Shown here piece after piece: positions 3,101 to 52,950 of a stretch of 64,000 bases of DNA; position 1 is the first letter of the stretch, and every line of letters starts with the position of its first letter. Source of the DNA: Pocillopora damicornis (taxonomy: Eukaryota). Below the pieces are notes generated by a model. That model saw only the letters and a program-made list of their open reading frames with translations. It was not told where the DNA came from and searched no databases. Where the stretch lies: the NCBI RefSeq assembly GCF_003704095.1, contig NW_020844815.1:124001-188000 (forward strand), written 5' to 3'. The position numbers were made by a program, and so were the translations under genes.

Positions 3101-6100
3101 AATCACCCTTATCAGTATGCAGATAAAGGTGTTTTCATGAAGGCTTGCTTTTTAATTTACACTACCTCTCTTTTCTCTACCATCTACTTGTTCATAAACT
3201 GTTCAGTTTATGAGGATCTTACTTTCATTCCTTTGAAGAGCATTTGGTTACATTTTAGAAAAAGTGAAAATGTTATTCACTAGCCTAGGTCGGTCCATAT
3301 TTGGAAAAACTGTGCCCTCTGTCATGAGTACCACCTACAGCCTCGGGCAGTATTCAAGAAATCAGGCACAGTTTAATATGGACCTCCCAGCTGGTGAATA
3401 ACATACATATAACCCTAACCACTGTTAGTCTTAGTTTGACTTGTGTTCTCCAAAGATTTTTATAGTAGCACCCACCCCTTATGAAATATAAGGTTGCAAA
3501 GGTCAAAATTTATTTGAGATGGAGATAGGTATTTTTTCTTAAATGTGGCTTCAGAATGGAGTAGCTGGTAAAACTGCTTGTTGTTGGTGCCTCTGGAGAA
3601 CACACTATGGCTCCCTCTTCTTCAAACAATGCATTTTTTTTTCTTTGATTACACAACATTGAAGACAGGAACAAGATTTGGTGATGTGAAATGTGGTACA
3701 CTCTAAACTCCAATTTTTGATACTCTAAAGTGTCTACCCGAATGATATTCATCAACAAAGGTTTTTGAGATTTGCTGCACCCATGACTAATGAAAGTGTT
3801 TGATTGCATTCACAGATTTCAATGACGATGATTACATCTGTGATAATGATCTAAAAAAAGTTATCCAGCGACTGTGTGGGGAGCAGAGGTTGTCTGATGA
3901 TAATGTGAATGCTTTAATTCAAAAGGTAAATCATCTATTCAGCACAGTGATCACTGATAACATCTTCAAAAGTAGTTTGCATTTCTCAAGGAATCTTTTT
4001 CTTCCTATGTGCATGGTAAAGCTAACAATTAGCTGTCTTATTTTACTGATGCTGGTTCACAGAGCTTGAAGGTACTTGTTTATGCAATTTACTGTTGAAA
4101 TAATGTTGATGAATGGTTGGAAATTACCTGGCAAGGTAAATTCATGGGAGCTGATGATTAGGAGAGTATTCAATCATTAAGTTTATTTATGGTGTTGATT
4201 GGCATGTTCAAACAGGTAGCATTGTAAATTTTACTCAGTACAAAAGGTGTGAAAGTAATGTTTCTCTTTTAAGCAATTGTCTCAAACATCAGTAAAGAGC
4301 AGGATTGATGAAGAAAGTCAAGAAAGAGAGACTTTCCATGAACTACAATGTATCAAATTGTCTCCTATCCAGGATTTAGTGGTCTTGAGCTTGTAAATAA
4401 TCTTGACTACTGATAATTTAAATTTTCCAAGACAGAGCTAACTCTTATAGCAGTTTCAAAGTGGCAGAGACACTATCTAAAGTTTTTTTTTGCTTTAAAC
4501 TTTGCTCCTAGGTTACAGGAAATATGCACTTTGATTCATATCCAAAAACCCCATTCAGGGGAAATTTAACCTTTCAGTGAAATAACTGTAACTGTCTTCA
4601 TTTTGTCCAGCCCTCCCACCCTCTCTCCATGGATAGTACCAGAACATTCAACCAAATGTAGAGTTTTTGTTTATATACTATTGACAACAAAGAAACGTTT
4701 TCCTTAGTTGAGTCCTTTATTTCAACAGCTATTGCTTTGCGCATATTCTTTGAAAATTGTAGGAAAATGAATTTACAACACAGCATCACTCCATTCATCA
4801 TAGCATTAATTTGATAATAATTTGATGTTAATTTGATGAACTCTTGTGTAATATTTATAATCATTCTTTAAAATGGTGAAATGCCAAAAATTTACAAGTC
4901 ACCTTAGAGGGAGAATGAGGGTCCAATGCACTGATTTGTAAACAATTGTAACAACCTTAAAGTCAACCAGCTGGCAAGACTTATTACCCCTTTAAATGTA
5001 GTACAGCAATCCAATTAACCCTTTAACTCTTAGTCATGATTGATAAGCAAATTCTCCCTAAAACATACATACATACATTATCCAGCAAACAGGTCATAAG
5101 AATATTCAAACTTATCAGGTAAAACTTGTTATCTTGATCCAACACCAACCTTTTGTAACTAATTTAAAAGGAAAATCGCTCTGACGAAGGGCTTACACTC
5201 GAAAACGCTCAAAACGTCAGCTTTTTTAGCCTTTACGGTGGCTAATTTACGTTTTCAACCCAGTTGTTAACACTAAATTACCTGCTAATTTAAAAGGAAA
5301 TGTGTAGCAGGTGGAGGGGAGAATTAACTATCAGATCTTGAGATTTAAAGGGTTAAAGAAATTTCACTTCAGTTATCAACTAATATGTCACACAAAGAAA
5401 ATTTTAAAAAAGCAGAAAAGTTAAGACCAGCAGTTCTCTATCTACTCCAGCTGTTTTATTCAAAGCTTGTAGGAATGTCTTGGAAGTCTCAACTGTCTTC
5501 TTTATATTCTCTTCATTTGTCGCCATTTCTCTTTTTCAAGGGAAGGTTGGCATCTGTTTGTGTAACTGGTATACTAGGTAATGGTTCAAATTCCAGTTCT
5601 ACACTTTTGGGCCTCTTTCCCTCAATACTGTTGTGATATCCATACAAAAAATACACAAACATTCCTGAAATGACAGAGAAATACAATTAATGAATATGTT
5701 TTTTGTTCTGTATTTTGTTCTTAATGTTCTCTTTGAGTCAAGTCTGGTTCTTTTAATGTTTATTTGGTTGGTTCAAGGGGTAAGCACTTTTCGGTAAGGG
5801 GCAACCACAAGTGATGAACGTTTTCCCATGCTCTTATTTTGACGCTGTTGATATAAATTAGTAGAGTTTGATTTCCACAGTTGAGAAGGTCATTAGAACT
5901 CTGTTTTCCATTTTCTTGCATCACTGACTTTGTGTCCATTTGGAAGGTATTCACAAGTCTGTCGCATAACTTTTTTGGTGTCATCAGAGGATTAATTAAA
6001 GGAGGGGCAAAAATTTTAACACTTAACTGTTGTGTTGGTGGTTTGAAAAAAAAAATCTAGACACAGTTGTCCTCTTGGAAGCATAGTTATGATATTGAGT

Positions 6101-9100
6101 TTAGTTTTGTAGTTTTTCCACTTTACTGCCTCATTGATTTGTTCTCGAATGCAGCTTATTATCGTTTAGATTTGGATATGATTAGTTTTTCATGTTTCGT
6201 TACCTTTTTGGCGTTCATGCTTTGTTGCCTAATATGGTATATTTTATAGTTATTAATTGTATCATCCATATTTTGTAATTGTTTTGAGGGCCACAGAGTC
6301 ATCAGTGTCTTTGGGCTACTGTTAAGTGTTTTTACCCTCTCTAAATAAAGCCTATTGTTACTATTATTTTTGGATTAAGGTGTGGCGCGCAATAACTTTT
6401 CTGCGGACTGTAAAAATTTTCTTTCATATTATTCTATGTTGTTGGAGTTCACTAGAAATATCTCGGCAATACTGTGAATACTGATTTTGTACATAGACTG
6501 CATGGGATAAATTTGACATAGATTACCGAGATAAGGCGTTTAGACTGCTATTGTTTGTTTGGCATCGTTGAGCATTTTTTTCCATTATTTTATGCTGGAA
6601 TAAAAAGAGAATTATGAACCAAAATGGGACAAACTTATGGTTTCTTTACCAATGTTTCCTCCTCTTTTACAAACATTTTTGCAAAAGAGTGGTTTGAGTA
6701 ATATTTTGATGCGTGGGTAACGGTTGAGTACCTCTGTTCCTAATGGAAAAACCATCAAGCGAAACGTCACGAATAGCTCAACTTAAGTCTAAAGGTTGGC
6801 ATTAATTGGTTTTTCGTCGCTCTATCCCACGTGCGCGACTGAACTAGCGCGCGTCTTTGGCGCGCGCCAAAGACGCGCTTGTTTTCGCGTGCGTGGAAAC
6901 GCGTTTACTTTCGCACGCGCGGATTCCCTCCGCGAGAAGAATGTGCTTGTTACTGCTAGTGAGGAGTGTTTTGGCGCGTAATATGAGTGTTTGTTTGTGC
7001 TTGTGCGAAATTAAATATGCGCGTAGCTGTATGCCCTCATGTGTGAAATCAGCGATACTGCCAAGTTTCGCTGAACTGAAAGAAAATACAATTTGTACAT
7101 ACGAATAAATAAAGCTACTTACCTATGGTTATCCAAATTGTACATTTTATGTAGGTGTGTGTTTGAAACAGTGTCATCAAAAACGTGTTTATAAATATAC
7201 TGAGTGATGGAAGAAGAGGAACACATGGAACCATAAACGAAAAAGTAGCACTGTTCCGGGGCTGAAATAGAAGAACTATAAGACAGGCTATTGTGATGGA
7301 CGAGTAAAGCGCCACGGGGAAGATCGTGAAAGCATCAATATTCTCTGAGTTAGTCATCCAAGTTCTGAGATATACGCAAACGGCAAACATGGATAGAATC
7401 ATGACGAATACCGTGACATTCACTATGGTGTTAGAGCACTCGCTTGGACTAGCGTGACAGGTTGTCGTGACACTGTCACTCTCGGACAGCGGAAGTTTCT
7501 TGTAGTTGACATTCTTTCCTCTCCTTCTCTTCTTCAGTAACGTTCGAAGCCAAGATTGCGTTCGTTCCAATAACTGCTCTTCATAGCATACCCACTGGGG
7601 ATTTTTTTGGTAGCGAGTAAGTATCACTGATATAGACACCATGGTGTAAGTTATAAGGGTCATAATGGCCATCATCTCCACTAACTGTTGCATGTTAAAC
7701 AGAAACGCAAGCAGCGCGCTCAGAACTCCACTGACAGCCACAGCTCGCAATGGAACCTGTCTGTCCTTGTTTATTTTAGTGAAGCAACCAAAAATGAGAC
7801 CGTCATACGCAACAGCGTAAATCAGACGCGGTGTCGCGAAACACGCTGCCAGCAAACTACTCAGCATCGCGCATAAGGCGCCAACGGAAACGATGTACGT
7901 TGATGCAGCAAATCCACGTTTGGCGAAGGCGGCGGCGACGGGTGCAAGGTCCTTTAACTGATAATAAGGAACCATCATGGTCAGAACTACGATGACTCCG
8001 ATGTAAACAAACAGGCTTATTCCCAAAGACAGAAGAATAGCCAGTGGTACAGACACCTTGGGGTTGACAGCTTCCTCGCTCGCACTTGGTATAGTATCGA
8101 AGCCTATGAAGCAATAGAAGCAGCTAGAGGCAGCTTTAAATATACCTGTCCAGCCGTACGGCGCAAACTTCTCCAAAGTGGACCAGTTGTAAGCATTGGC
8201 ATGGTAGGCCCCGGCAAAGATAACGAAAGTTGCTATGAGCAGGTTGGCAAAGACTGTCACGTCCAGTATGGTTTTGGACTCTTTCACCCCCAGGCAGATT
8301 ATCATTGTCGCTAAAAAAACTAACGTAAAGGCTAAAAGATCGGGAAGCTCTGAAAGCGCCGGCGCTTGCCAAAGGCCGAATGAATCCTCGAAGAATTTGT
8401 ACACAGAACCATTGGAGAGAAAATTAATGTACTCGCTACAGGCCGATGCCAGGGACGCGGCGGACAGAACATACTCGGTAATCATACACCAGCCGGTCAC
8501 GAAGGCCCAGATCTCTCCCATGCCAACGTACGTGTAGATGTAGCCAGAACCGGAGCGGCTTACTCTGGACGAAAACTCCGCATAATTCATACCGGCCAGG
8601 AGGGAAGCTACAGCCGCAATTAGGAAGGACACGATGACGGCTGGACCCGCAACCGAGTGCGCAAGCTGACCGATTACAACATATAGCCCTGCGTCTATCA
8701 AGCCACCGATACCGAGAGCTGTCAGATCAAACACGTTCATACAACGCTTAAAGGGTGTGTCACTCTGAGCAAAATCATCAGTTTTCCTTCTGGTCAAGCT
8801 TTCAATGAATTTATAACCATACATCGCGACCGCGTTGTGGATGGAATTCTTGTAAATAAAAATTTCAATGCGATGCGAAGGCGCGCACCCCAAGCGTATA
8901 CAGTCCAGCAATCTTGTTTTTTTCTAGTTGTACGCCGCTCATTTGAATATTGACTTTGGACGCGCTCGACCATAAACAGTCGGCATTCAAGCATGAAATA
9001 ATATTATTTTTTGTCGAGTGCGGAGGCGTTCAGGATTGTTCTGGTAACATGGTAAACGCTCGTTTGGAGTCGCACACATTTTTCTGCCATGTTGCCGTGT

Positions 9101-17392: not shown

Positions 17393-18886
17393 CCCCCTCG
17401 TCACTTTTGTCCTCATTGTCTAAGGGCCTTTGTAACGCGGGATCAATGAGCCTGCCTTCTGAAATTCAGCATATGGGAACAGAAACCAAACACAAAAAAA
17501 TGCTTTTATTGTAGCCAGGACTTGGAAGCGGTGTTTTAGGTTGTAATGCACGTTGCAGTGGTAAGGCCTCTGAGTGCTCCTGTGTTGCTCGTCATCAACT
17601 GATATGATAGGGAAGGGGGGTGGTATAATTTGTCAATACTGATCTGTCAAAATACAACTACTGTAAACTGTTGGGAATCAACTTCCTCGTGGGTGCACGT
17701 GGTGGTCAGTTTTCCATAATGGAGTGCTTTTCGATTGACTGTCGTAAAATTGTCATAAAACCAATCGCGAATGTGTCGTGATTGGTTTTAGTTTTGCTTC
17801 TAATTGGTCGAGAAGATGGCACGAGTTTTCAGGTCCAATTACTGAGCGAAGTAAAACAAAGCCGATGCAGTCCTTGAGTACTTTCGACATTTAAATGGAA
17901 ATTGCTCTTTTATCTTTCGATTCTCGCTCTTTCGTTTCTTAACAGAGCGGGAAGAACTAAAAATGAAGAAAGAGCATTAGCATNNNNNNNNNNNNNNNNN
18001 NNNNNNNNNNNNNNNNNNNNNNNNNNNNNNNNNNNNNNNNNNNNNNNNNNNNNNNNNNNNNNNNNNNNNNNNNNNNNNNNNNNNNNNNNNNNNNNNNNNN
18101 NNNNNNNNNNNNNNNNNNNNNNNNNNNNNNNNNNNNNNNNNNNNNNNNNNNNNNNNNNNNNNNNNNNNNNNNNNNNNNNNNNNNNNNNNNNNNNNNNNNN
18201 NNNNNNNNNNNNNNNNNNNNNNNNNNNNNNNNNNNNNNNNNNNNNNNNNNNNNNNNNNNNNNNNNNNNNNNNNNNNNNNNNNNNNNNNNNNNNNNNNNNN
18301 NNNNNNNNNNNNNNNNNNNNNNNTGGCTTCCTTGTTCATACGAATGTTTGTCGTTTAAAATTTTTGGTATTCAATTTTTATGGTTTGTTGAACTCTGAAT
18401 CATATCAAAATTTTAGATGACTTCATCGGATACTAGATACTGATATTGATCCCACTTACTGCAACACTTGTTCTCTATCTCCCGGCCCACTGTCCGTTCT
18501 CATCTCACCCTCAATGGGTAACCACCATGCAAAACTAGCCAGTGACGATCTTAAACGTTTCTGTGTCAGGTTACTAGTCAGCGGAGACATGCTAAAAAGC
18601 GCGAAAAGCGAAATGTGGAGGGAATAACGCGAGGACAGCTACATAGCTCTTCTCCATTGAGCGAGGGCCTGGAACAGGCTAGTTGCTGGAAAGATCCGTG
18701 AAAGGGCCTGAAAGGGAAAGCACTGAAACTAGTAGGAAGGTCACCAGCATTAGCCCTGCCTTGCGCCTTAATGAGTAAGGAGAACGTAACTCTTTGCCCT
18801 TCGTCATTTATTGAGGTTAAATCATCAACAAACGGTGAAAAATAGACTTTAGACTTTTTGAAGATGGCAGATCTAGCTACAATCAG

Positions 18887-19100
18887 GACAATTTGGTTTT
18901 AACAACTGAATTGATAATTTAAATTGGCCACCGGTAAAGAGTTTCTCAAGCTGATGTTTCGTCTAACGCTCGAAACGTCAGCTTTAGAAACTCTGTATGG
19001 CGGCCAAATTACATTATCAACTCATTTGCCTAAGCCAGATTGTCTTTTCATACCTTCACCGACACCGCACCTCAGTTTCTCAGAAAATTTACCCCCTTTG
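18887..19100 (+). mobile_element. Penelope-like terminal fragment with inverted partial duplication
   Basis: 18887-18960 is a diverged reverse complement of 18970-19044 (centre ..tttcg tctaacgct cgaaacgtcagc..). The body matches the family at 5175-5284 and 24168-24327. Confidence 0.65.
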
Positions 19101-19246
19101 TTGTACTTTAAAGCCAGACTGAAAAAGTAACTTTTTGGAGCCTGGGACTTAGTGCTAAGGCCAGGCTACCAAGTAATTATTCCGAAACAACCTCAACTGC
19201 GTCATGTAAGTCTAAATTTGTTCGCCTTGTAGTGACATTTTTAAAT

Positions 19247-22200: not shown

Positions 22201-24815
22201 CATCCAGAAAGTCCCTTTAAAAAAACTGATTTCTAACATAGGACCTCATCTTTCATTAGTTGAATTTACCATTCCTGTGACACATGAAATACACTAGATT
22301 AACCCTTTAACTCCCAAGATCTGATTGTTAATCCTCCCTTCTAGCTGATACACATTCCCTTGTAAATTGGTTATGAGAATTAGGTGTTCGAACAAGGTAA
22401 TATCTTGTACCTGATGAGTTTGAGTATAATCACTGCCTGTTTTCGAGATAATGTATGGGTATTACAGGGAGTTGTTACATGTTAATCACTTCTAGGAGGT
22501 AAGGGATTAAAGGAGAAAAAAGAAAAATGAAGAAAGAAAGATGTCCAAATGCTATGTTTATTTTGAAGAGTTTGGGCGGATGGAGTTAAAAGCATTTAAG
22601 TTTCATCTATTTTATCTACTATTAATGTGATTCATGCGAGTGTGGTATTTGTTTGTTTAGCTGGATTGTCCTGCTGCTCTAGAGAGAATAAAAGAGGGCA
22701 GACCCATCACTATCAAGGATGATAAAGGAAATACCAGTAAAGCCATTGCAGACACAGTTTCAGTGAGTAAAAGATCTATCATGTAATCATGCAAGTGCAT
22801 ATTGTATCACATAGCTATTGAATAAAGTAATGTTCATCACAGAAGTGAACATGGTTTTTAAGTTGTGGCATTTCTTAAATTGGACTGGATACTCGGGTTT
22901 CAAGATGAAATTATATTCATTTTAGAGGATTTGTAATTTTTTGTCTTTGGTTAAGTAAAGAAATCTTTTGAGGGGATGTTGATGACATTGTTTTTGATAT
23001 GGAGTTGAGTTGCACAATTTTTTTTTTTTTTGCCATTTCCAAATTCTTTGTCTCCACTGATGATCCACAACTGATATTTGAAATTAGGAGAATTTCAAGA
23101 GAGCATTTTTGTAATACTATATACATAAGTTCATGAAATTGCAGGTGTAGGAGTTCAAGCATATTGGTTTTAGGCAAGAAATTATCCCCACAGATCCCCT
23201 TTCTCTTGTTCACATGTTCTCTCAGTTATTGTTTCTTTGCTTTAATTTAAGCTCTTTATAACAATCATGGACAAGCTCAGATTACAGATCAGAGCCATGG
23301 ATGAGGTAACATGGTACTAGTGATAGTGGCTTGATTATAGGTATCTTTTCATCAAGCTTTCATGTAGGGTATAGTTTAGGACTTTCCTTAAAGGAAATGG
23401 TTACACTCAGGCGTTCTGCATGGTATGGATGCTTTGCAAGTCAAGTGCAAGTCAAGTGCAAGTCACAAGTGCAAGATGGTTTTTCAAATTCAGAGCAGAA
23501 GTTTTTTTAGTCTCATTTTTTTTACAATGCCCAGAAAGTTTATCAGGGAGCCTCATTCAGGTAGCCCAAAGATATTTGTCTTTGGATTGTGTCAATTTCT
23601 GATTCAGCCAATTCTAACATCTACTGTTAATTAGTTGTTCTCTTTACAACAATTCCTTACTGTGATTATAATGATTATTTACAACACAGATTCATCCAGA
23701 TCTGAGAGACTTAATGGATACTATGAACAGCCTTAGTGCACTCCCTGAGGATTTTGAGGGAAAAGTCAAAGTGAATGGGTGGTAAGTTTTAATAAATGTA
23801 GTTTAGGAATAAGATTAATGATGAGAGCTGGATCATTATCCAGGAAATTAAAATTGTTATCCATCACCTGCCAGTCATTCACTGCAAGTGAAAAATAGCC
23901 TGAGGAGGATGGAGTGGAAATTGCCAGTACGACAATAATTTAAGGGTTGATGTGTGAAACAACTACTAACGTCATAAATTATAAAAGAAGTCTGCTTGAA
24001 CATCCGTCCACTGAATGTTGCTGACTTACAGGTTTTTCTCTCTGAAAATTAATCTTGCTTAGCTTAAAATGAGTTGCACTTTAAACAATGGACAGAGACA
24101 GTGCTTAGATTGTGGGAGAGTTATGGGATGAGGGTACTCTGGAGTAATAGCAAAATTTACCACACTAATAAATAAGGGGGTAACTTTCTAAAGAAACTGT
24201 GGTGCTGTGTCAGTGGGAGAGTATAACAGGGTAGTTAAGTATTATCAACTGAGTTGTTAATGTAAATTGGCCATCGTTAGAGTTTAAAAGTTGACATTTC
24301 AAGCATTAGCCCTTCATCAGAGTGATTGAACTCCCTTTTACCATACTATGCCATAGTATGGTAAAAAAGTGAGCAAATTCTGGGAGTGCATGGTATCCTG
24401 CACTCTACAGATTTAACTGATCATGTAAAGCTCAGGTTTAATGAGACTCTCATTGGTAGTGGCCCAAATTTGTAGAATATGGATGTAAGCCAGATATTAC
24501 TAGTACCAATCCCCTACATTTGGGGCTTTTGTACTTTACCAACATTCTTACTTAAACCAGGGGTAACTCAAAGACAACTAGCAGATTCAAATTCAAGTGA
24601 ATGATATATGGTCATAAAACACACAAACTGTTTACCACTGGGTAAGTTTCTGACTGCTTACTGATTACTGATTTGTTTTGCCTGTAAACTGCAGGTATGA
24701 AACACTGAGCAGTATGAAAGCAAGTGATGAACTTACTGATGAACAAGTGCGACAGATGTTGTTTGATTTAGAACAGGCATATAATGCATTCAACAGATCT
24801 CTGCAGCATACCTAG
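19247..24815 (+). CDS. VPS28: ESCRT-I subunit VPS28, 10 coding exons
   Basis: Exons 19247-19286, 19492-19514, 19724-19761, 20570-20659, 21464-21503, 21807-21872, 22661-22762, 23252-23305, 23690-23781, 24695-24815: [131 protein letters not shown]. Confidence 0.96.
22299..22510. mobile_element. TTAA-flanked MITE
   Basis: TTAACCCTTTAACTCCCAAGATCT... near-identical to 31770-31982. Confidence 0.8.
24168..24327 (-). mobile_element. Penelope-like/hammerhead-bearing repeat copy (CpG-decayed)
   Basis: Minus strand reads cactCTGATGAagggctaatgcttGAAAtgtcaacttttaaactctaacgatggccaatttac...cacagtttctttagaaagttacccccttattt. A partial copy also lies at ~27110-27175. Confidence 0.65.
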
Positions 24816-31700: not shown

Positions 31701-33132
31701 AGAAAATCCATAAGACATGAGACATAAAACATACTTTTCCCCCCTGCACATTCTATCTGCAAATACAGTTTAACCCTTTAACTCCCAAGATCTTACTTGT
31801 TAATTCTCCCCTCTACCTGCTACACATTTCCTTGTAAATTAGTTATGAGAACATGGTGCTAGATCAAGATAGCAGCCTCTACCTGATAAGTTTGAATACT
31901 CTCATTACCTGTTTGCTGAATAATGTATGGATATTGTAGGGAGAAGTTTCATGTTAATCACTTCTGGGAGTTAAAGGGTTAAGGCCATTTTCCCACCCCT
32001 GCACCTTTTCTTTATCAGTCCTTTTCCTCTCAACCCTTCCTTCTATAAATCTTCCCTCCTCCTCCTTATTAACATCCTTCTTTCATTTATTTGCTGAACT
32101 ATAACATTTGGATCTTAACAAATCATACTCTTGTGTTACCAAACTTTCCAATTGATGCTATGGAATCAAATCTGTGTTCCGTCAGGCTGATATCATCAAT
32201 CATTTCAATTCCAACTGCGCTGTTAAACCTGTAAAATACTCAAAATGTGTCTTTGCTCATTTTACTCATTTTACTTATTTTACCCTCATGTTATGGAACT
32301 GTTTCCTTGGTTCAAAATAGAGACTAACATATCTAGGTTTGGTTATATTTATTAATACCATTATCATTAGTATTTATATCATTTTTACCATCAGGATTAT
32401 CTTGTAATTATTAGAATAATCATTAATTTTAAAACTACTGCTATTATCATCATCATCACTGTACACAATATAAAGTATCAACTTACCTTGTGTTCTTCCA
32501 TGAATTTCTGCAGTTATATTTCAGAGAAGGAGGTTTATTTTGAGAGATATCTTCAACTATCGTCAGAATAACCTCTTCTAGTTTGGTGATGGCTTCATCT
32601 CTACAGATAGAAAAAAATAACAACAACAAATCACATAATAAGGTAAAAGTAATAAATCACTTGATTTACAGGTAAATCTTATAATTTTGTTTTTAATTAA
32701 ACACTCGGGTTTTCTGGAATAAATATTTGTACCAGGATAACTTTCTGAAAAAATTACCATCAAAACCCCAGCAACGTCCTTGTGGACACTGATGTGCGAT
32801 GCTAAATAAATCACAAGAGAATTTTTACGGAGAATGTTTATTACAGAAAGTAAAGTAGATCTTTGGAAGGGGTCAATCTAAAGTGTCTTGGTACAATTTC
32901 TCCAAAGTCGTTTAAGTTTACATGCTGTCTCTTATCGACTTACAGAACTTTCAACGAAACTTTTTTCTTCCAGACAAAGTCCCTACCTGGATAACGTCTT
33001 AGGTTTTACAATACTTTTTTCGTCAACTTCATCACTTGATTTCTGCATGGCATCTATTCTATCCAAAGATTGCAGCTGTAGTTTGAGTAGGTTGATACAA
33101 CGCCAAAAGTCTGCATTTGAGTTGGCCGCCAT
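25786..33132 (-). CDS. SPO11: Meiotic recombination protein SPO11 (topoisomerase VIA-like), 14 exons, ~401 aa
   Basis: Exons 33132-32987, 32600-32487, 32228-32140, 31406-31340, 30957-30849, 30298-30283, 29828-29758, 28847-28811, 28266-28157, 27600-27501, 26994-26957, 26864-26788, 26378-26267, 25905-25786, all phase-consistent. Catalytic TKRDIYY, Toprim [51 protein letters not shown]...YLPVKI. Confidence 0.96.
27865..28125. repeat. Dispersed repeat family (ccaatcagatgcaaaactaaaa core)
   Basis: Reverse-orientation copy at ~36940-37195 (both translate to [21 protein letters not shown]). Degenerate copies at ~17720-17905 and ~52070-52300. Confidence 0.7.
31770..31982. mobile_element. TTAA-flanked MITE with perfect TIRs
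   Basis: TTAA-CCCTTTAACTCCCA...TGGGAGTTAAAGGG-TTAA. Confidence 0.85.
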
Positions 33133-50200: not shown

Positions 50201-52950
50201 AGGATGGGGGAGTAGGAAGGGTAGGGAAGGGCAGACACTTTATGCCGACCCCACCCACCGTATTCAAGCCCCACTCCACAAAGTGCGCCCTACTATTACT
50301 AACTCCATCTTGGAAAATGTTGTTTCTCGTCTCAGATTACAGTTTTATTTCTTTTTAGATTTGTGGGATTTAGATGAGCCCCCAGTGGAAATTCAACCCA
50401 CAACTAAACTTGAACGCAACAGAGACCCCCTCCCTGATGAAAATCCTTTAAGAAATGCGACACAAGAACCTGCGAAGGCTGAGAAGTCCGGTGAAATCAC
50501 AGCTAATAGTAAAGAGCAAATGAACCTGTCTGGTGCTGTAGTGGAGGAACTAGAGGGAACTGTTACCACGTCCTCGCCTCGAAGTGAGAAACTGAGTGAA
50601 GAGAAAAGTTTAGGGCTGGAGGTTAAACAAAGGCCACAAGAAATTGCTATTCACAAATCAGAGGAAGTACCTCCACAAAAAACTGAACAGACTGAACCAA
50701 CTCAACCAAATAATCAAGATATATCTAACGATCAACACGAACTGGCTTCTTCAGAGCCGTCAGGAGCACAGCCTGAAGGTATAGCAAACGGCAAAACAGC
50801 TGATGATGCGCGTCAAACAACTTTACACAAACGTGATAACAGCAGCGGCTCTGGTGACAGTTCGTGGTCAAAAATTAGTTATGAAGACCTTAAGACTGAT
50901 GGAGATAAAGGAGGTACATGTAATAACCTGTTACTTATGATCATAGGAAAAGGCACTGTTTTGATTCAAGAATTAATTCCATGTCATGTCACCCATTTTT
51001 ACATTACACTGCCTTGGGGATACGGTGCTCGCGTTTAACAAGCATTGAGACTGAAAAAGGTCGAGAGCAACTGCCCATTTTTTTCCTTAACATTGCTTTG
51101 TGCTCATGGAAAAGTGTGGAAATTTTTCTGCATAATATTTTAGAAAGTGTGAAATTAAGATAAAGTCTGGGAAAAATGGAAAGATAGTTTTAAAACTCTT
51201 CGTAGGTAATCTTAAAGTATGATTGTCCGGGTTACTCAGTTCAACAAATATTGCTTCAGTCTTTATAAGATTCATTTGATCAGTTGGAAATTAATTGCTT
51301 ATTATGACGCATTTTGACTTGGGAAGTGTTCTTTAGTTGTGACTGGTCTGTTTTTCTCTAGCGGTAAAGGTACAGCTGTAGACCGTTTAGTTTGGTTCGT
51401 TGATCTTGTCAATATGCTGTTGATATCTTTTGAGAGGGGAGAGGAATCATTTTTAACTTAGTAAACCAGCTTTTCAGAGTCAGACGTTTGAAATATTGTG
51501 GCTGTAGAATTTGACCGGTCTAAGGTATTCTTTTCTCTTCTCAGCTGATACCAAAGAAACTGGAGCCGGGTCTGGGAAGAGCTCCATCTCCTCTGGCAGT
51601 GGGGTACTGGTGCCCAATGTGGATGACAAAGATGTGGATTGGGACGATGGCGATGATGATTTGGATTTTAACGAGGAGATGTCCGAAGAGGAAGTCAAAA
51701 GAATAATGGAAAGTATGGCTAATAAGAAACAAACTGCTGCTGATGATGGTGCTGCGGATCTTGATGTGAGTCAATGGTTTAAAATAGGTCTTATAAAAGT
51801 AAAAAAACAACACCACTATTGATTTTCTCAGGCGTTTCCTCATTTATGTGCAGAGAAAATTTGAAATGTTTACCATTGTAAAGAAAAAGGTTATTCATTA
51901 TGGGAGTAAGTTTTCTTATTTCGGCTCAAGAAGAGACCCACATAAAAGATTACCTCAACTAGGCTTTTACCCAGTTTACATTTTGAACAACTCCAGTTTG
52001 TTGGAAAACGCTTTGGTTTTTATTTCTCATTGGGGAGGAAGACATGTTATGCAAGATAGTTCGATCACAGAACAGTTTTCAGTGGTTTCCAAAGAAATTT
52101 GGTGCTTTGGAATTTGTGTCAGAAAACTCGCGCCACCCTCAACCAATTAGTTTTCAAACTTAACCGATTCGTTATTTCGTCACTCGCGTTTTTGCGCCGG
52201 CTTTCAAGGAAGTTTGCCTGATTTTACTTTTGATGTGTGTGTGTGTGTTTTTTCTGCCTCTAAATTCTGAATGGCCGAGGCTGCTAACGTTTTGGCTAAT
52301 TTTNNNNNNNNNNNNNNNNNNNNNNNNNNNNNNNNNNNNNNNNNNNNNNNNNNNNNNNNNNNNNNNNNNNNNNNNNNNNNNNNNNNNNNNNNNNNNNNNN
52401 NNNCTTCCCTCCTACTTTATTATAAAGCACCCCCCTCGATTAACCGCCCTCCTCCTGATAAGCGCTCCTCCTTTCAGCTGAAATTTTAACTAAGCGCCAG
52501 GCGCTTATTCGAGGAAATACGGCACGTACAGTTTCACTCCCATACCACAGCGACCATCTGCTTGACATGGTTACTTTCCATCATGACGTGCTTCATGGTT
52601 TGTCTGTTTTTTTTTTTCTTTTGGTAAAATAATAAAAAACGTTGACACTGGCTAAACTGAAAATATTGTTCTGGATGTTTCGGCCTCTACTGTTGCCTTC
52701 TTCAGCAAATATGAAAATACAAATGCCTAACGGCGTCCTGCCTGGTATATGTCCACGATGGATAAAACTAAATCTCGAAGGATTTTTCTAAGTGTAACAA
52801 TAGTCTCTAAAAGTTCTTAATGTGATTGTATATGTATATTTTTAATGTTATTGTATATGTTTGGTAGCGTTGTGTTCGTCCCCTCCCTTGTCAGTGCTTC
52901 ATGGTTGATTTATATATTATTTTACGCCTCTACGAAAGGAGGTGGGGTGA
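44275..52950 (+). CDS. BSDC1: BSD domain-containing protein 1
   Basis: Exons 44275-44288, 44377-44443, 45724-45840, 46330-46378, 46576-46694, 46802-46856, 47946-48061, 48600-48668, 49412-49493, 50359-50913, 51545-51765; last exon tentative (52939-52950). Motifs SWWGTW..KSAEAMTMVKQDLAEFVSTVQHDT, ARLHEIQTDPATFCSEPNG, KGEISELLVNVPEIRALYAKLVPSAVTHVLFWQRYFYKVHQLQQEE, acidic C-terminus. Confidence 0.9.
48848..48985 (+). ncRNA. Putative H/ACA box snoRNA, copy 1 (degenerate H box), BSDC1 intron 8
   Basis: Hairpin TCTCACC..GGTGAGA, hinge, hairpin TCTGG..CCAGA, ACA at 48980-48982. Paralogous to 49687-49826. Confidence 0.55.
48992..49188. mobile_element. Second TTAA/CCC-ended MITE family copy
   Basis: accctttaacccctgagag...gtgtaaagggttaa. 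Confidence 0.7.
49687..49826 (+). ncRNA. Putative H/ACA box snoRNA, copy 2, BSDC1 intron 9
   Basis: Two hairpins with internal pockets. H box AGAGTA (49749-49754) is 14 nt after upper stem 1; ACA (49821-49823) is 15 nt after upper stem 2; 140 nt total. Confidence 0.65.
49939..50185. mobile_element. TA-flanked MITE (Tc1/mariner-pogo-like ends)
   Basis: TA-CCGTAAAAACCCGCAGATAAGCCGCACC ... GGTGCGGCTTATCTGCGGGTTTTTACGT-TA (28-bp TIR, one terminal mismatch). A related right end (..cttattcgaggaaatacgg) lies at ~52500-52522. Confidence 0.8.
52601..52893 (-). mobile_element. Retro-insertion with hammerhead-like motif, A-rich tail and 13-bp TSD
   Basis: GTGCTTCATGGTT at 52588-52600 and 52894-52906; T-run at the left end; minus strand 52710-52668 reads tttgCTGAAGAaggcaacagtagaggcCGAAAcatc-cagaa. 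Confidence 0.6.

Follow-up and report, generated by a model that had tools for sequence, protein, structure and literature searches.

A probable Neptune-type Penelope-like terminal-repeat stump with a damaged minimal hammerhead motif inside a MITE of Pocillopora damicornis

The insert and its host MITE

The stretch of DNA analysed here, referred to as the window, comprises 64,000 nucleotides of the Pocillopora damicornis genome. On its minus strand, positions 5513-7999 carry an amino-acid permease gene (Pfam AA_permease), whose likely last exon has its stop codon at 5513-5515, with an AATAAA at 5455-5460. Since the gene ends there, the MITE and the insert described below lie just downstream of it and in antisense orientation. 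An exon on the plus strand (3794-3930) is convergent with the permease gene and resembles, we presume, an EF-hand calcium/integrin-binding protein. The MITE spans positions 5015-5356. It is bounded by TTAA (5015-5018 and 5353-5356) and by short terminal inverted repeats beginning with CCC, measures about 208 bp without the insert and is, by these ends, taken by us to be of the piggyBac type. At least five copies of this TTAA family are present in the window, and an uninterrupted form is found elsewhere within the 64 kb.

The 110-bp insert (5175-5284, plus strand; 5174-5287 when junction microhomology is included in the homology) lies between two identical 16-nt copies of a direct repeat, 5159-5174 and 5285-5300 on the same strand, as the sequence-only reading had reported. 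A 12-mer repeat at a spacing of 50-200 nt turned up in 9 of 200 shuffles of positions 4001-6500. Element and target share 1 nt at the left junction and 3 nt at the right, where the first 3 nt of the right repeat also fit the continuation of the element; thus, the true target-site duplication is 12-16 bp. When the insert and one repeat are removed, the alignment of the MITE passes ungapped through the junction in two uninterrupted copies on the minus strand: the one at 31769-31982, our empty-site reference (81% identity over 218 columns), and a further one at 22299-22510 (74% identity). The earlier claim that excision restores the MITE is therefore confirmed. The insert is without terminal inverted repeats. 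A DNA transposon or MITE origin was rejected, as the insert shows neither such repeats nor a short fixed duplication. These observations, together with the variable long duplications, agree with the earlier view of a retrotransposed insert. L072, L083, L109 and other stumps apparently lie within the same TTAA MITE family, their flanks being alike by eye.

A probable terminal repeat of a Penelope-like element

The source assembly was searched with the insert, which gave 1734 first-look candidates, 40 of which were scored. In the genome, 430 exact matches were obtained with a 30-mer of the insert and none with its control. Positions in the family are given relative to C3 of the hammerhead motif (window position 5181 = 0), with the cut predicted after +27. 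In the long copies L007, L012, L016 and L118 the stop codon of an ORF is located 97 nt upstream of C3, and the family continues beyond what had been noticed before, by about 55 nt on the 3' side (the tail) and by kilobases on the 5' side (the ORF). The ORF of the long copies matches RVT_1 (Pfam E 1e-6). A full-length relative, P0001, harbors both RVT_1 and GIY-YIG and shows 72% identity over 183 aa to the C-terminus of L012; on the 184-aa piece of L012, GIY-YIG was not detected by Pfam, and its identification there is based on the match to P0001. The order of RT, C-terminal GIY-YIG and terminal repeat (pLTR) is found in broken copies here and in the intact relative P0001, and an RT + GIY-YIG partner sharing the ends of the insert, for which a search had been proposed, thus exists.

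In the translations of L012 and L007 a CCHH motif with two Cys between GIY and YIG is recognizable by eye, which is part of the definition of EN+ Penelope-like elements (PLEs) in the sections available of Craig et al. (2021, PMC8557442). The same source lists a CX2-5CxxC linker zinc finger and DKG as marks of the Neptune and Nematis clades; L012 possesses an RT-EN linker zinc finger of the form CX4CxxC and L144 a DKG motif. The optional tail, the inverted 5'-truncated copy and the variable target duplication are all present as in EN+ PLEs. The putative Neptune label is based on a published element of this clade whose hammerhead is identical (see below).

Identity between the short copies and the last ~100-160 nt of the long ORF-bearing copies is 97-100%, and the best reading of this match is that the short copies are landings of the autonomous element with extreme 5' truncation. 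As judged from the sequence, the window insert is the 3' end (pLTR) of an RT + GIY-YIG PLE and apparently no separate mini-element; the earlier proposal of a distinct non-autonomous element is not supported, because of this identity. Our main reading, to which we assign a probability of roughly 0.87, is that the insert represents the terminal repeat of a Neptune-type PLE, cut at the front edge of the hammerhead and likely generated by target-primed reverse transcription of uncleaved RNA. Against the preferred explanation, no intact full-length copy was found in this assembly, and every long copy examined in it is broken. A master with a direct pLTR (pLTR-tail-ORF) was not found among the 25 + 7 loci holding the 5' part of the ORF in this gap-rich assembly. 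The kind of element and its hammerhead motif are already known from the literature, and the window copy adds a damaged stump with no sign of function.

The hammerhead motif

The insert carries a minimal type I hammerhead motif at 5178-5221 on the plus strand, with stem I at 5178-5180/5219-5221, the core at 5181-5187, a bulged A at 5188, the 5' strand of stem II at 5189-5192 and the predicted scissile bond between 5218 and 5219. The consensus given in the sequence-only reading agrees with the family sequence when checked against the copies: it has the CUGANGA/GAAA/UH core, the bulge after A9, the G10.1-C11.1 pair, a palindromic stem III and stems I and II, and 46 of 67 arms are identical over -3 to +30. 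In the window copy, the small internal duplication mentioned earlier proved to be a 10-bp tandem duplication at 5195-5214 on the plus strand (units 5195-5204 and 5205-5214). Its first unit has a G>A change in stem II and has lost the adjacent ACGT, and its second unit has G>A at the conserved G12 position, so that no single register combines G12 with the adjacent stem III palindrome. Since the duplication splits the core in this way, the copy is predicted to be inactive as enzyme strand, as had been suspected; its ribozyme is probably broken, and formation of the catalytic core is not expected. L002 (1501-1608), L176, L049 and L046 also have short duplications or deletions in the same stretch, which arose independently, and this stretch may be a slippage hot spot for the reverse transcriptase.

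In Acropora digitifera, a Neptune element with two hammerheads about 3 kb apart was described (BACK01051917; Cervera & De la Peña 2014, PMC4209133). In its supplementary table and Fig. S3, the stem I, core, bulge, stem II, loop and ACGT palindrome of this hammerhead are identical to our family consensus. The earlier assignment to the minimal type I hammerheads of the Penelope kind is right. The flanks differ by several bases, pointing to a sister family, the consulted text of the article provides no statistics of copy ends, and the window copy is damaged. According to the consulted parts of that article, minimal motifs are mostly single, probably representing truncated PLEs, with some close pairs on opposite strands, and they cleave weakly in vitro and only as dimers (PMC4209133).

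A generic hammerhead core pattern has 1525 matches in the genome versus 10 for the control; the core is retained in other families, whose stems I and II differ. A constant core with stems that differ between families is as expected of a conserved fold. Within this young family, the variation is too low to show covariation. In the predicted monomer ensemble, a slipped hairpin in which the core is paired to the cleavage site (-12.3 kcal/mol versus -7.0 for the hammerhead fold) takes up 65% and the hammerhead 0.01%. A hairpin that buries core and cut site in the model would agree with weak or protein-assisted cleavage. In cofolding, the double-hammerhead was not the lowest-energy dimer. The suggested Infernal search gave no hammerhead match in Rfam, neither in the window at E<=1, where only a chance microRNA match on the palindrome at 18885-19046 was obtained, nor on an intact family copy at E<=10; these results carry no weight against the motif because minimal motifs escape those models.

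Copy census and integration

Our census covers the first 100 of the 430 pattern matches in contig order, which fell into 86 loci and, after 8 duplicates had been dropped, 78 sites with 121 arms. The arms begin at -15 to +6 in 86 cases, with peaks at -7, -6 and +1; none begins at -16 to -70, 12 at -71 or further upstream, 6 at +7 to +26, 5 at +27/+28 and 12 at +30 or later. The 5' ends pile up at -10 to +6 relative to C3, and the predicted clustering at the hammerhead was indeed observed, mainly at its upstream edge, with only the five arms mentioned at the cut site. The description as 'ribozyme-headed' is appropriate by position only, as most copies keep the whole uncut ribozyme. The ORF is reached in 9 of 78 sites, and 69 stop short of it. 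The window copy, which runs from -6/-7 to about +93-96, belongs to the single short arms and is typical of them. RNA runs containing the sequence carry coral or marine metagenome labels. In RNA contigs from four runs, depth rises 10-14-fold at the hammerhead edge; this step was rejected as a sign of a transcript start, as contigs cannot show starts and copy number suffices to explain it. Of the six arms whose end is at -7, five have an extra G at the 5' junction, a possible sign of a cap, but a T is found in 10 of the 15 whose end is at -8, and most of these junctions are inverted.

Among the genome-wide matches lacking C at +27, 5 of 15 are truncations that start exactly at the scissile bond, compared with 1 of 7 and 0 of 6 at the neighbouring positions, a count confounded by the AGCT palindrome at this site. 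These truncations are a weak hint, from sequence, of occasional cleavage in vivo. All five copies starting at the bond have a T just before it, possibly an untemplated A added at run-off. The loci concerned here are L175, L177, L178, L180, L183 and L184, the last with 11 extra bases exactly at the bond. Both the truncations and the five arms at +27/+28 would suit a non-LTR retrozyme, of which hammerhead-cut monomers are circularised and reinserted. Retrozymes occur in corals (PMC7229834), and they share with the insert the type I hammerhead, the lack of coding capacity and a link to PLE pLTRs (PMC7229834; bioRxiv 10.64898/2026.07.22.740005). As described in the accessible parts of these sources, they consist of tandem units of 150-450 bp with canonical hammerheads, whereas the insert is a dispersed stump with a minimal motif. 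The copies here are dispersed singles or inverted pairs, the 86 arms at the upstream edge keep the uncut ribozyme, and among all fetched loci only two same-strand motif pairs, 367 and 1643 nt apart, were present. With neither head-to-tail tandem units nor a canonical hammerhead, a retrozyme identity is largely refuted and we regard it as highly improbable; the earlier comparison with retrozymes is not upheld.

The 3' ends of the 121 arms fall into two classes, 59 at +86 to +101 (tail-less) and 58 at +143 to +153 (tailed), with 4 elsewhere. The reference stops at +153, and nine copies inspected past this point diverge. The tail of about 55 nt is longer than the 30-40 nt described (Craig et al. 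2021, PMC8557442), a point against the preferred explanation. Besides 35 single arms (19 short, 16 tailed), there are 43 head-to-head pairs; 39 combine one short and one tailed arm, in the remaining four one arm is further truncated, and pairs of two like arms do not occur. Duplications of 12-16 bp surround 37 of the 39 short and tailed pairs, 33 of them at 13-15 bp with microhomology included, in line with the predicted target-site duplications of variable length; mismatched flank pairs gave none above 10 bp in 2000 trials. Against our preferred explanation, a duplication of at least 12 bp is found around only 8 of the 35 single arms. Where both arms are near-full (28 pairs), they have 17 variants in common versus 4.0 expected (0 of 5000 shuffles), while 42 variants are not common to both, which also counts against the preferred explanation. 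The sharing fits an origin of both arms from one sequence variant, and gene conversion in the palindrome could also produce it.

Head-to-head inverted copies, a tail at one end and a duplication around the unit are likewise features of EN+ PLEs, of which solo pLTRs are also known and where, in the text available, the inversion is put down to self-priming and the tail to endonuclease resolution (Arkhipova et al. 2013, PMC3846280; Craig et al. 2021, PMC8557442). Fold-back of a single cDNA was rejected here, as it would nest the short arm in the tailed one. Of the 39 pairs, 16 have a short arm that extends at least 3 nt further 5' than the tailed arm, and the tailed arm of L052, L068 and L077 stops at +95, +121 and +88, at or downstream of the start region of the short arm. 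Such non-nested arms cannot be explained by fold-back of one cDNA, and we infer that two primings on one RNA fit the pairs best, and better than the self-priming of EN+ PLEs (PMC3846280, PMC8557442). Presumably, the endonuclease cuts both target strands about 13-14 nt apart, and reverse transcription would have two alternative internal starts, near +93 and near +150, as the two 3' classes suggest. A head-to-head pair would arise when one RNA is primed from both nicks, each using a different start, and a single arm like the window copy when only one nick primes. Least certain is the final step: the template RNA, derived from the upstream pLTR of a tandem master, may have its 5' end at -7 to -10, so that copying would end there by run-off. 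The 10-bp duplication of the window copy may have been gained later or during copying. As a whole, it is tempting to speculate on twin priming on one uncleaved RNA, with a stagger of 13-14 nt, two fixed RT starts and run-off of both cDNAs 7-10 nt ahead of the hammerhead in the manner of a strong-stop product, while tailed solo copies may be SINE-like and a minority record cleavage in vivo; we propose this combination only tentatively.

The position of the 5' edge may also be set by structure, with the RT falling off past the hammerhead hairpin or the cDNA folding back there. The dominance of the slipped hairpin in the predicted monomer and the smear of 5' ends over -4 to -10 speak for this, but DNA parameters do not favour that hairpin in cDNA, and fold-back alone fails for the non-nested pairs. 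We consider such an edge possible, if doubtful; it touches only the last step of the twin-priming scheme and is compatible with the rest. Alternatively, solo pLTRs might form a self-propagating SINE-like family with an internal promoter near -7, mobilised in trans by the Neptune protein. The excess of short copies over ORF-reaching ones and their hard 5' edge would be in agreement with this, tailed solos contain both putative RT start sites, and in Adineta pLTR sequences are reported to be enough for trans-mobilisation (PMC3846280, as far as its available text goes). However, no bases peculiar to the short copies were seen, given their near identity to the ends of long copies, both -8 alleles are found in short and long copies, and run-off from a tandem master yields the same lengths. 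Thus, we regard a SINE-like family as improbable.

For twin priming on one uncleaved RNA, the closest known case is Poseidon_Ac (PAc) of the green anole, which cuts and extends both strands of its target, has an optional tail bounded by two internal RT starts and uses mainly uncleaved RNA as template, hammerhead cleavage being dispensable (Frangieh et al. 2024, PMC11167929, from the portions available). PAc belongs to another clade; the tail is about 55 nt here, and, unlike in PAc, the start of the ORF seems not to overlap the hammerhead. The portions available on PAc do not mention a coupling of both starts in a single insertion. Among the open-access papers listed by the searches, no Penelope paper used the term 'twin priming', save two that name Penelope once. 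The family can serve as a fossil record, in which hundreds of near-identical young copies show a cut stagger of 13-15 bp and two RT start sites. Together with the strict rule of one tailed and one untailed arm, these features allow direct tests, in the in vitro system already at hand, of how Penelope elements complete second-strand integration.

A second hammerhead family (L230-L259, G000) with 75 matches has a 5-bp stem I and head-to-head pairs, and its 3' ends lie, by eye, at two positions as in the first family, about +101 and about +135. Against the preferred explanation, it lacks a comparably sharp 5' edge, and 11 of 30 copies run on for at least 69 nt. One of its copies, L237, includes an endonuclease piece without the linker zinc finger, which we assume to be Poseidon-like. 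In the window, two older relatives of the insert belong to the first family: a head-to-head pair at 18885-19105 (right end approximate) with a tail-less left arm and a decayed tail on the right arm, and a single tailed, CpG-decayed copy at 24175-24326 on the minus strand (lower end approximate). A further minimal hammerhead-like motif of another family is located at 52672-52709 on the minus strand (core 52705), with a 4-bp stem I, a GGC/GCC stem II and a decayed ACGT, and is probably another Penelope stump.
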